Source: an uncultured bacterium
GTDB lineage: Bacteria; Patescibacteriota; Minisyncoccia; Phycocordibacterales; GWA1-40-21
Assembly (NCBI GenBank): GCA_903823865.1
Contig: CAIJUJ010000021.1
Coordinates: forward strand, 6,732 to 70,731
DNA length: 64,000 nt
Direction of reading: 5' to 3'
Shown: piece by piece, positions 774 through 57,930 of the stretch
Layout of the letters: each line of letters begins with the position of its first letter
Position numbering within the stretch: the stretch's first letter is position 1
The notes under the pieces: model-generated
The model's database searches: none
Told to the model about the DNA's origin: nothing
Seen by the model: only the letters and a program-made list of their open reading frames with translations
Position numbers and translations under genes: made by a program

Positions 774-1220
774 TCACCATCCAAAACGTTTTTTATGATT
801 TTTTCTACGAGCATTTTCATGCTTTTTACAAAGTGTGGAAAACCAGGAATAAATTTCCACTGTTTTACCCGGCTTACCGCATTTTTCGCATGTTTTATAA
901 GAAAGACCCTCTGCCTCACGGACGTATTCTTCGAATTCTTCTGGGGAGCATGTCGTATAATATCTTAGCCCGCCATATTTTTCCTTTATATCTGTAACGT
1001 TGTACATTTCGTACCGCTCAGGATTTTTGTCGTACACGGCTTTAATTTTTGTACACATATCCCATATTAACTTATACCAGCCCATTCCAACCAAAGGATA
1101 GTAAAATTCGCGAGATTTCCATATTTTTTTACCACCTTCCAACACAACATATTCCCTGAACCATGGAAATGTATTAACGAGCTTTGTCCACTTCTTTGTT
1201 GCGACATCAATTCTTTTCAT
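774..1220 (-). CDS. Hypothetical protein, phage-like, with C-terminal CxxC zinc ribbon
   Basis: 148-aa ORF; DIKEKYGGLRYY and CEKCGKPG motifs; G-rich SD upstream. Confidence 0.65.
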   Translation of the reverse strand: MKRIDVATKKWTKLVNTFPWFREYVVLEGGKKIWKSREFYYPLVGMGWYKLIWDMCTKIKAVYDKNPERYEMYNVTDIKEKYGGLRYYTTCSPEEFEEYVREAEGLSYKTCEKCGKPGKTVEIYSWFSTLCKKHENARRKNHKKRFGW

Positions 1221-1371
1221 TTTTCACCCCCCTATTTTTTAATTACTCATGACAATGCGTAGCATTACGTCTGATTTAAGATTACAATAAATTTAAAATA
1301 GTGCAATATAGAATCAAAGCAGTTTGTTTGACTTTCTTATCACAAAAAATAATGCGAAAGCGTTATTTTTG

Positions 1372-1563
1372 TTGTGCCAAGGGCCGGAATCTCTCCTTCA
1401 CCTTTCATTTCATCGCCACTCAATTCGGGCTAGGCACCAGTTCATTCACCCCGCAAGCTTGCGGGGTATCATTCCGCTGTTCTCGTCCGGACAGAAGCAA
1501 AGCAGTTTGCTTCCTCCCTCAAGCCAATTTTAAAAACACCAAATGTTGGTGTTTTTAAAATTG
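1372..1563 (-). repeat. tRNA-3'-matched structured element, core type D, after tRNA-Phe
   Basis: 17-nt direct repeat of tRNA 3' end (1372-1388 = 1561-1577); core nearly identical to 56989-57073. Confidence 0.85.
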
Positions 1564-1636
1564 TGCCAAGGGCCGGACTCGAACCGGCGACCACATCCTC
1601 TTCAGGGACATGCTCTACCAACTGAGCTACCTTGGC
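1564..1636 (-). tRNA. tRNA-Phe(GAA)
   Basis: Cloverleaf; anticodon loop CTGAAGA; T-loop TTCGAGT; no encoded CCA. Confidence 0.95.
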
Positions 1637-1974: not shown

Positions 1975-1997
1975 AGAAAGATTATATCATAAAGTTG

Positions 1998-2069
1998 TGC
2001 CGCCAGTAAGAATCGAACTTACATCTATCCCTTAGGACGGGACTGTTCTATCCATTGAACTATGGCGAC
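1998..2069 (-). tRNA. tRNA-Arg(CCT)
   Basis: Cloverleaf; anticodon loop GTCCTAA. Confidence 0.9.
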
Positions 2070-2150
2070 AGGCTATGAGAAATATAGCACAAAATAACTA
2101 ATCAAAAAAACCGCCTGCCTGCGCAGGCAGGTTTTTAGGCGGTTTTTTAT

Positions 2151-2390
2151 TTATTTAATTTCTAGCAATTCCCTCAATCTGTCTTCATCAAAACCCTTGA
2201 CCATTTCATCATCAACAAATATTACTGGAACGCCCATCTGTCCACTCCTTTCTACCATTTCTTTTCTTTTAACTAAATCTGTTTGCACGTTAAATACTTC
2301 ATAAGAAATATTGTAATCATGAAAAAAATCCTTTGCTAAATTACAATAATGACAAGTTGGTGTTGAATACATTACTACTTTTTTTTGCAT
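2151..2390 (-). CDS. Glutaredoxin / NrdH-like redoxin
   Basis: YSTPTCHYC active site; GQMGVPVI motif. Confidence 0.9.
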   Translation of the reverse strand: MQKKVVMYSTPTCHYCNLAKDFFHDYNISYEVFNVQTDLVKRKEMVERSGQMGVPVIFVDDEMVKGFDEDRLRELLEIK

Positions 2391-2460
2391 ATTTTTATTT
2401 ATTAACTTATAACTTTTTTATTATATCATAAGTTTTAAAAAGCAATACTTAATTTTATTA

Positions 2461-2605
2461 TGTGCGAGTGGCGAGAATTGGCTATTACTTAGCCAGGTGC
2501 TTTTCCGCCTCACTTCGCTCGTATATAAAAGCCTTTCGATTCTCGCCCACAAGCAAAGCAGTTTGCTTGTTCACTCGAATTTAAAAACTAATCGTTTTTA
2601 AATTG
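2461..2605 (-). repeat. tRNA-3'-matched structured element, core type C, after tRNA-Gly
   Basis: 18-nt direct repeat 2461-2478 = 2604-2621; antisense arms 2535-2547 and 2572-2577 split by an ACTGCT-loop hairpin; core similar to 57266-57325. Confidence 0.85.
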
Positions 2606-2676
2606 TGCGAGTGGCGAGAATCGAACTCGCGCCCGATGCTTGGGAAGCACCAGTTCTACCACTAAACTACACTCGC
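2606..2676 (-). tRNA. tRNA-Gly(CCC)
   Basis: 71-nt cloverleaf; anticodon loop TTCCCAA; A at the discriminator. Confidence 0.92.
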
Positions 2677-37999: not shown

Positions 38000-38110
38000 G
38001 GTCTTTGCGAGTAAAATGTGAGGAAGCAAAAGTCTTTGCTTCCGCAAGACCTTGAATGTTTTGTAATCAAAATGTGAAAGGTGTACAGTTCCTGTAAGGA
38101 ACAATCCAGG
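38000..38110 (+). repeat. Type-B core module not linked to a tRNA
   Basis: accttga...gaaaggtgtac...tgtaa hairpin as at 15553-15625; ends gtctttgcgag...aatccagg as at 40407-40442. Confidence 0.65.
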
Positions 38111-56901: not shown

Positions 56902-57117
56902 CGGCTGGCCGGAGTTTCTAAGATTTCGAGTCATGCTGGCCGGAGTTTCTCCCTCGACTAAAGCCTCGTCTTCACTCGGCTTTGTCTGGGCACCAGCTCA
57001 TTCACCTCGCAAGCTTGCGAGGTATCATTCCGCTGTTCGAATCCGGACGCAAGCAAAGCAGTTTGCTTGCTCCAGCCGCGCAAATAAAAATAACCACTTT
57101 CGTGGTATTTTTATTTG
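56902..57117 (-). repeat. tRNA-3'-matched element, core type D, after tRNA-Asp
   Basis: Perfect antisense tgcgcggctgg | ccggattcgaac split by the ACTGCT hairpin; two direct copies at ~56902 and ~56935. Confidence 0.88.
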
Positions 57118-57191
57118 CGCGGCTGGCCGGATTCGAACCGGTGACCTCTCCCGTGACAGGGGAGCGCTCTAACCAACTGAGCTACAACCGC
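57118..57191 (-). tRNA. tRNA-Asp(GTC)
   Basis: Cloverleaf; loop CTGTCAC; G73. Confidence 0.95.
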
Positions 57192-57242: not shown

Positions 57243-57395
57243 TTCTTGTGTCGACGGGTGGAATCTGCTACTACATAGCCAGGTATTTTTCCACCTCGCT
57301 TCGCTCATACGGAAAAATCTTTCAATTCCGCCACGGAGTGAAGCAGTTCACTCCTCTCGCACTCGAATAAAAATGAATATTCATTTTTATTCTTG
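57243..57395 (-). repeat. tRNA-3'-matched element, core type C, after the CAT tRNA
   Basis: 23-nt direct repeat 57243-57265 = 57390-57412; hairpin ggagtga-actgct-tcactcc. Confidence 0.85.
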
Positions 57396-57469
57396 TGTCG
57401 ACGGGTGGAATCGAACCACCGACCTTAGCTTTATGAGTGCTATGCTCTAGCCAACTGAGCTACGTCGAC
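57396..57469 (-). tRNA. tRNA with CAT anticodon (elongator Met or Ile2)
   Basis: Cloverleaf; loop CTCATAA; isotype not resolvable by eye. Confidence 0.85.
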
Positions 57470-57520: not shown

Positions 57521-57775
57521 CTACTTGTTTAGATAGTGTTTTAATTGTTTATTTAAATATTTTCTTCCAGAACCACCTTTTAGAAATTTCTCTCTACCAA
57601 CCGCATCATCTATATTCAAATATGCTTCATAATAAACAAGTTTCCAGTTGGTTTTATCTTTTGTAGTTCTACACCCCTTTCCTCTTAGATGGTCAGTGAT
57701 TCTTTGTTTTAGATTTGATGAATATCCAATATAAAAACTCTTATCTTCATTTTGTAAAACATATGTATAATACAT
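57521..57775 (-). CDS. Stand-alone GIY-YIG nuclease (84 aa)
   Basis: MYYTYVL...FYIGYSSNLKQRITDH...LVYYEAY...A..RE.FLK; start reassigned. Confidence 0.9.
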   Translation of the reverse strand: MYYTYVLQNEDKSFYIGYSSNLKQRITDHLRGKGCRTTKDKTNWKLVYYEAYLNIDDAVGREKFLKGGSGRKYLNKQLKHYLNK

Positions 57776-57930
57776 TTGGTCATTATCACTTTTATACAAA
57801 AATAAATCAAATTTTTGGCCTGCCACGAGACAAAAACTACCTTGGCCGCGCAAAATAAATTGATTACAATTTATCGCCCGGCTCACGAAAAACAAAAACT
57901 ACCGATAAAATCAGTAGTTTTTGTTTTTCG

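Follow-up and report, generated by a model that had tools for sequence, protein, structure and literature searches.

The question raised by this stretch of DNA is why the sequences that follow two different tRNA genes should be nearly the same and yet differ from each other by paired changes. The window, by which we mean the whole stretch of 64,000 nucleotides that was analysed, is part of a genome of 677 kb and 33% G+C (G000), and it carries a tRNA-Phe(GAA) gene at 1563..1636 and a tRNA-Asp(GTC) gene at 57117..57191, both on the minus strand. An earlier note had proposed that segments behind the two genes align almost base for base, and this is borne out by an ungapped match of 76 of 85 positions between 1433-1517 and 56989-57073; the Asp coordinates had been given correctly, and those for Phe (1432-1516) were one base off. 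The second-best place in the window matches at 43/85 positions, and shuffled windows give 36-40. Both of the compensatory changes that had been cited are indeed among the nine differences, one being pair 1451/1464 in a core hairpin (C-G for Phe, T-A at 57007/57020 for Asp) and the other pair 1494/1513 in a side hairpin (G-C for Phe, C-G at 57050/57069 for Asp). The difference at 1493/57049 turns a G.T wobble, read on the tRNA strand, into G-C, and those at 1483-1485 fall within an arm opposite the T-loop of the host tRNA.

The two segments belong to units of about 190 bases that contain no gene and lie behind the 3' ends of tRNA genes. On the tRNA-sense strand the order is the tail of the tRNA, a cap hairpin, antisense to the 3' strand of the acceptor stem, a 25-nt side hairpin, antisense to the T-stem and T-loop as far as position 54, a core, and a forward copy of the tail. 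The forward copy starts at position 57 and is interrupted between 59 and 60 by extra bases or a mini-hairpin, and the side hairpin makes an offset of 25 nt in 33 of 37 units. The core found at both Phe and Asp is of a kind that we call type D. There are other families of units, with a mini-hairpin in place of the terminator-like cap or with a direct fold-back.

In the case of Phe all parts are on the minus strand, with the limits of the sub-parts read by eye. The tail of the gene (positions 54-74) is 1563-1583, and the cap hairpin at 1526..1562 is an A/T-flanked inverted repeat that looks like a terminator, although a terminator scan made no call on it, and that turns the strand back onto the tail. 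The antisense arm to the acceptor stem (1516..1525) is partly decayed; the 25-nt side hairpin with its ACTGCT loop (1491..1515) is set within the antisense arm opposite tRNA position 64/65, and the antisense arm to the T-stem 3' strand and T-loop follows at 1480..1490, where tandem G.A replaces two Watson-Crick pairs opposite G57-A58. Hairpin 1 of the core (1438..1479) has a 4-bp base, a bulged G, two tandem G.A loops around 2 bp, a bulged T and an 8-bp stem. Hairpin 2 (1395..1434) has a base of 3 bp plus 3 bp, a bulged A, a 6-bp stem with a tandem G.A swap, a further tandem G.A and a 2-bp tip. The distal forward copy of the tail (positions 57-74, at 1374..1393) has 2 extra bases between positions 59 and 60, and the direct repeat that had been reported here is present, 1373-1392 matching the tRNA tail at 18 of 20 positions. 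The flanks had been said to match Phe and Asp respectively, and the host tRNA is followed at each locus, except that the acceptor-side arm at Phe is the partly decayed one.

Beyond the direct repeat lie the second hairpin and the remnant of an ACTGCT hairpin that had suggested a second unit. This occupies 1312..1373 on the minus strand, with a cap at 1344-1373, a short antisense piece at 1336-1343 and the side-hairpin remnant at 1312-1333, and has no core. Taken alone the remnant matches the first Phe unit at just 17 of 29 ungapped positions. However, the cap and arm resemble those of the first units, which are intact, at tRNA-Phe in two relatives (L046 and L058), and a decayed second unit is thus supported. 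Between it and an Hsp20 gene there is a 148-aa open reading frame without a Pfam or NCBIfam family (774-1220, minus strand); in several relatives Hsp20 comes directly after the Phe trailer.

In the case of Asp (minus strand throughout) the cap hairpin at 57082..57116 is terminator-like on both strands and the antisense arm spans 57036..57081, made up of an acceptor part (57072-57081), the side hairpin (57047-57071) and a T-arm part (57036-57046). The type-D core is 89 nt long (56950..57038; hairpin 1 at 56994-57035, hairpin 2 at 56951-56990), and two truncated forward tail copies (56935-56949 and 56902-56918) lie within 56902..56949. Related units with different cores are found, also on the minus strand, behind tRNA-Gly(CCC) at 2461..2604 and behind a tRNA(CAT) gene (57395-57469) at 57250..57394. 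The Gly-Arg-Phe tRNA cluster and a glutaredoxin gene (window 1997-2676, and L002, L011 and L015) vary in order and orientation among close relatives, with the breaks at tRNA ends. The tRNA-Asp gene itself has an A49.C65 mismatch in its T-stem, common to five genomes of the genus (with L129, L130, L133 and L136) whether or not a unit is present. We considered this mismatch as the scar of an incoming foreign tail and rejected the idea, since it is also present at the L136 site, which has no unit.

Covariation in larger alignments had been set beforehand as the test of a folded structure. The two-hairpin structure of the type-D core was first drawn by eye, and RNAalifold gives nearly the same fold. 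A fixed pattern yielded a first set of 43 distinct cores, 5 of its 48 hits being omitted (3 for which the script found no core end and 2 duplicate cores). In these, 95.8% of cells pair, against 34-48% in slid registers, and 22 of the 28 pairs show double-sided changes. The base helix is fixed by the search pattern, and we therefore took 49 further cores found by BLAST and a covariance model; in this alignment, which is fitted to the model, 96.3% of cells pair and double-sided changes are found at 25 of 28 pairs, the base helix now included. The copies are related to each other and hairpin tips change as blocks, so the counts overstate independence. The covariation reaches pairs across the bulges and the tandem G.A loops, and the length of the core is held at 86-92 nt. 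On the tRNA-sense strand G.T pairs outnumber A.C by 34 to 6 in the 43 cores and by 35 to 3 in the 49, which, as judged from these wobble pairs, makes this the strand that folds. Taken together the covariation across bulges and G.A loops, the fixed length and the excess of G.T support selection on a single-stranded structure of the core. This part of the original claim stands; the idea of Phe and Asp as a special pair of twins does not, and a precursor tRNA as the folded molecule is disfavoured by the motifs that we now discuss.

In hairpin 2, tandem G.A takes the place of two Watson-Crick pairs in 15 of the 43 and 13 of the 49 cores, and all cases but one are pyrimidine-GA-purine. Motifs were counted in 79 complete units from 28 tRNA types and compared with shuffles. 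Pyrimidine-GA-purine tandems occur 86 times on the sense strand (17±4 in shuffles) and not at all on the opposite strand, other contexts being unenriched. GNA triloops are enriched on the sense strand (32 against 11±4) but on the antisense strand too (24 against 3.5, mostly from one type-D site as far as is visible). The tetraloops typical of RNA are unenriched, with GNRA at 9 against 7 and UNCG at 1 against 2. Tandem G.A pairs occur in RNA too, the DNA energy table has no context effect for them, and folding tables did not separate DNA from RNA. G.A blocks of this kind are stable in DNA hairpins according to PMC10085684, whose reference list names the DNA decamer GCGAATGAGC; most cores have the last eight bases of this decamer in hairpin 1. 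The mini-hairpin GCGAAGC recurs in the units as an insert or cap, and according to PMC13037366 it is far more stable in DNA, melting at 76.5 C, than in RNA, for which 39 C is given for the RNA form of an 8-mer relative. The pyrimidine-GA-purine swaps and the unenriched RNA tetraloops favour single-stranded DNA over a structure in the precursor tRNA, and we consider that the folded form is probably DNA.

An action of the unit as RNA has nevertheless to be weighed, either with the trailer pairing with the 3' half of the tRNA as a switch in maturation, or with the arm and distal copy forming a mimic of acceptor and T-stem with tRNA-like processing. The strand that folds is also the one transcribed, RNA folding sequesters the 3' half of the tRNA (z of -5.0 and -8.9), the side hairpin is at 64/65 or 65/66, where the D and anticodon arms join in a tRNA, units are also found behind tmRNA, and other families lack a terminator-like cap between tRNA and arm. 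However at Asp such a cap comes before the arm and separates the tRNA from the rest of the unit, only 12 of the 27 tRNA-Phe genes printed have a unit (by eye), and cassettes related to the units are present in hairpins that are not tRNA. The arms are the complement of the 3' strand and do not reproduce the wobble-pairing 5' strand of the tRNA itself, and the lack of tetraloop enrichment in the modules also speaks against RNA. We regard an RNA role as unlikely, though it deserves to be kept in mind.

The arms are matched to the host tRNA. In the first set the comparison could be made for 37 of the 48 units (those with a core end that could be located and a host tRNA no more than 110 nt away), and the arms match their own tRNA at 135/148 T-stem and 229/259 acceptor positions, the figures for other isotypes being 56% and 35%. 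The second set (26 of 30 loci with an upstream tRNA) gives 197/208 positions for the own tRNA and 61% for other tRNAs. The arms follow variants of the host at the level of alleles. At discordant sites the arm pairs with the proximal tail in 31 of 32 cases, which decay of the distal copy would explain equally well. An arm is present in 158 of 338 trailers. Opposite a host G57-A58 there are 104 Watson-Crick cases, 23 of tandem G.A (from 15 tRNA types) and 10 others, but opposite A57-A58, where the tandem cannot form, all 21 of 21 are Watson-Crick. This pattern indicates that in the selected fold it is the tail of the tRNA gene itself that pairs with the arm.

These data also bear on whether the units could be by-products of mutation, in which fold-back template switching and palindrome correction would give inverted copies and apparently compensatory changes without selection. 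Many of the double-sided changes are block swaps of entire hairpin tips that are near-perfect palindromes, and there are arms without a side hairpin as well as plain extensions of the cap into the tRNA end. The sense-antisense-sense order of a unit is moreover the geometry of the inverted triplications made by template switching (ODIRA), which according to PMC11507740 are joined at short hairpins. The units differ in having as one junction a foreign, conserved and selected module shared between loci, and in a scale of tens of bases. Palindrome correction would be expected to erase bulges and G.A loops, yet these are kept; the double change to tandem G.A is found in the 15 tRNA types and never opposite A57-A58; and one and the same 89-nt core follows at least 15 different anticodon types in the first set, with 20 for the second. 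For the core such an origin is largely refuted, and as an account of the whole unit we find it highly improbable, but it may still explain arms and tips.

With regard to distribution, an antisense T-arm match of at least 8/10 within 170 nt is found for 20 of the 43 tRNA and tmRNA genes of G000, a raw count that falls to 18 when a convergent tRNA pair is taken out. The type-D covariance model finds 8 places in G000; among 150 genomes of the order it has hits in 55, and among 150 of the phylum in 5. A search of the class for the exact side-hairpin pattern found it in 42 of 401 genomes (one hit in the control), and records with the same core bear the titles Ca. Paceibacterota, uncultured Ca. Saccharibacteria or uncultured bacterium. 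In Rfam the gathering score is reached by tRNA and tmRNA alone, the rest being sub-threshold hairpin matches. The type-D pattern has 0 matches in viral contigs, and the phage and plasmid collections gave no match. At 183 tRNA loci there is no gene between tail copies within 1.5 kb; of four more distant hits, one is a second tRNA. Descriptions of such units are absent from the freely accessible full-text literature searched.

Several observations bear on movement. The site behind the tRNA(CAT) gene that precedes Asp is filled in G000 and empty in the relative G003, and the ancestral flank resumes past the distal copy. Asp genes that differ by at most one base have three different cores in G000, G003 and G005, and behind a tRNA-His gene (L041) there are three tandem copies of 188 nt. 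In four assemblies we found no joint that removes or circularises a unit, contigs being apt to drop rare forms, and no free circle was seen. Caps occur in both orientations behind Ser and Phe tails, and a systematic search for flips at the same tRNA gave 1 flipped pair and 3 in the same orientation, which are small numbers. Two sites with partial tRNA copies are also recorded for G000. At C6:1-289 and the end of C7 a tRNA-Gln(TTG) gene lies between partial tRNA-Gln copies and is followed by a type-D unit; in L060 the same sequence carries two units in tandem, and the C6/C7 break therefore probably falls within this repeat. At C7:13100-13400 (L155) a mirror-type unit on the 5' side of tRNA-Asn has copies of the 5' part of the tRNA, an antisense piece and a module at the D-loop position, with the intact gene next to it.

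The cores are mosaic. The Phe and Asp cores of G000 are 93% identical in hairpin 1 and 53% in hairpin 2. Compared with orthologs in relatives the figures for hairpins 1 and 2 are 62% and 90% for Phe, and 69% and 97% for Asp, and for most pairs of sub-modules all four combinations are found. Given mosaic sub-modules and filled and empty sites, the resemblance from which we started is likely to be an exchange of modules, and is best read from these comparisons as exchange of hairpin 1, perhaps eased by T-stem sequence common to the two tRNAs.

Identified by eye, a cassette of three hairpins is related to modules of the tRNA units; two SRM-like repeats have it in their loops, and it also lies within a copied tRNA-Asn D-loop, copied 5S rRNA ends and the type-D unit at tRNA-Thr. 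A solitary copy is found between genes of the window at 38019-38100 (plus strand), and the sites of the cassette in G000 are C8:6797, C29:38179, C7:13289, C29:6020 and 6513, and C26:768. In the SRM-like loops there is a 3-base repeat at the junctions, and the first hairpin of the cassette is interchangeable with the side hairpin of the tRNA units.

The units do not belong to the integrons, integrase islands, REP/RAYT, SRM/Ssn, MITEs or Rfam families. Integrative islands with tyrosine or serine integrases at tRNA and tmRNA 3' ends duplicate the tail, starting at the T-loop, without breaking the gene. Like them the unit is flanked by a direct repeat of the 3' part of the tRNA; unlike them it is about 190 nt long, has no integrase in or beside it, includes an antisense copy of the tail and has one core at most tRNA types. 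Unlike those of a MITE, its inverted parts are derived from the host and internal, and the duplication is of about 18-20 nt of tRNA. The tail repeats of the E. coli tyrT type are tandem, each with a tRNA 3' end, and are not known to have an antisense arm or a core shared across tRNA types; the units are likewise repeats of tail copies, but have both. REP, REPIN and BIME repeats with their Y1 transposase are non-coding hairpins handled as single-stranded DNA, mosaic and restricted to lineages. The units are similar to these and to NTS/SRM repeats as mosaic, lineage-restricted, non-coding hairpin repeats with presumed handling as single-stranded DNA, but they are tied to tRNA tails, with arms derived from the target, and they do not co-occur with Y1 or GIY-YIG genes. 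The NTS/SRM repeats that go with Ssn nucleases, as PMC11893778 describes them, are non-coding hairpin repeats handled as single-stranded DNA that flank a small GIY-YIG gene; in G000 SRM repeats occur separately.

By analogy, the unit seems to work most like an attC or CTX-type folded site placed at an integrase-type target. CTX-type attachment sites are a folded single strand. The likeness is one of working only, and lies in one strand folding to an imperfect hairpin, conserved unpaired bases, strand bias, fixed spacing with free sequence, and tandem stacking; the features of the attC fold and the RYYYAAC and GTTRRRY consensus are taken from PMC5027507. The unit differs from an integron cassette in being gene-less and in a genome without an integron integrase. 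It differs from attC in having no RYYYAAC box on inspection, AAC being present in type D alone with T-loop antisense before it that misfits the consensus, and in that its paired region copies the target gene and differs for each tRNA.

Candidate enzymes were looked for in G000, which has six small GIY-YIG genes, one Y1 transposase, one Xer-like recombinase and three serine recombinases, and no hit for a reverse transcriptase. The catalytic part of its sole tyrosine recombinase, a partial protein, scores 176 bits to XerD and 115 to integron integrase, both under the cut-off. Among the 150 genomes of the order, Y1 (PF01797, which does not separate RAYT from IS200) is present in 30/55 with a type-D core and 54/95 without, reverse transcriptase in 28/55 and 32/95 (p 0.057), and GIY-YIG in 47/55 and 74/95; none of these is significant, and the comparison is diluted in that genomes without a type-D hit may hold other types of unit. 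G005, which is 99% complete and has 7 model hits, gave no hit to any of the four enzyme families at the thresholds used, suggesting either core host proteins or persistence of units after loss of the enzyme. Among the longest ORFs after units, 0 of 72 hit a recombinase or nuclease family and none share a family (72 of 95, duplicates and ortholog repeats left out); by eye there is a GIY-YIG-like ORF after the unit of L119. None of the six small GIY-YIG genes of G000 is flanked by type-D cores, and one is by SRM-like repeats. This is the gene at C8:37402, where the arrangement is as for Ssn; four others (C4:4877, C8:9607, C15:18054 and C29:34319) have short inverted ends and look like mobile cassettes. 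A small GIY-YIG gene in the window (57521-57895, minus strand) lies between two tRNA(CAT) genes, and the hairpin insert that precedes it is bounded by a repeat of the 3' arm of a terminator.

The large serine recombinases of G000 are at C21:86285-88159, C7:11406-13148 and C31:31026-32710, and two of them run into sequence antisense to tRNA-Ser(GCT) and to tRNA-Asn; the beginning of C2 resembles the far end of the element at Ser(GCT). The units could on this account be far-end modules of serine-recombinase elements that stayed behind or were copied with no cargo: the start of C2 has, behind a pseudo-attachment arm, an orphan unit like type D whose arms are those of tRNA-Ser(GCT), the C21 recombinase ends in tRNA-Ser(GCT), and L062 and L181 are similar orphans. 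However, in L182 tRNA-Ser(GCT) is followed directly by a closely related cap and arm, as is tRNA-Glu in L177, a serine recombinase is found in 7/10 relatives with an exact type-D match and 10/15 without, and G005, G007 and G010 have cores and no recombinase hit. We have rejected such modules as the cause of the units, which we regard as extremely improbable, on the grounds of the L182 and L177 caps and arms and of cores in recombinase-less genomes; the L182 arrangement and those genomes make the orphans best read as displaced host trailers.

The same sites bring up the possibility that the host keeps the units at the DNA level, as decoys or buffers for elements integrating at the ends of tRNAs, or as hot spots of recombination by which genes are taken up more readily. 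The units do occupy the sites of integrative elements, with two of three G000 serine recombinases ending in tRNA genes, a wide variety of genes follows them, and the order-wide count shows them to be widespread. Yet tRNA-Ser(GCT) has a serine-recombinase element in spite of a unit that most likely stood there and has since been displaced, the 183 loci have no gene between tail copies within the 1.5 kb examined, and units decay and are often absent. A host function of this sort seems to us quite unlikely, and selfish spread is what we infer in its place.

Our preferred explanation, to which we give a little better than an even chance, is that of a gene-less cassette with tail copies of its own host, which likely folds as single-stranded DNA and likely spreads selfishly by recombination through host proteins, with hairpin modules exchanged between loci. 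The unit would be the integrated form of a closed dumbbell in which tail pairs with antisense, the cap closing one end and the branched core the T-loop end. The dumbbell would enter a matching tRNA tail by a crossover inside the tail, so that the gene stays whole and the forward copy is left behind. A new tRNA would be reached in two steps, fold-back copying at a hairpin after the tRNA to make the antisense arm, and then exchange with other units to bring in core and side hairpin. As to the enzyme our guess is a core host function, for example the single Xer-like recombinase, or RecA with template switching. The arm-copy duplex has its two inserts on different strands, with 5-6 bp between them, and the cuts of tyrosine recombinases have similar spacing. 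The extrahelical bases of attC are also spaced in this way (PMC5027507), and we take the spacing as a hint and no more.

We also put forward, more tentatively and at clearly less than an even chance, that these are self-retargeting, gene-less mobile DNA: a single-stranded dumbbell the size of a viroid, with a targeting duplex rewritten for each host tRNA and a shared, recombining kit of hairpins that also enters the loops of other structured DNA, using host enzymes only. If movement is by host enzymes alone, then the target would be set by base pairing and not by a protein. The recombination route has no description in the literature searched.

The 3' ends of tRNA genes are main landing sites for integrative elements, and in this streamlined genome about 4 in 10 tRNA genes carry a structured cassette that matches its own host gene base for base, with cores shared across loci and families. 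A covarying sequence behind a tRNA is not necessarily a structured RNA, and tests at the level of sequence can tell DNA folds from RNA folds. If the dumbbell reading is true, this would be a new mode of DNA insertion, guided by base pairing and needing no enzyme encoded by the element.
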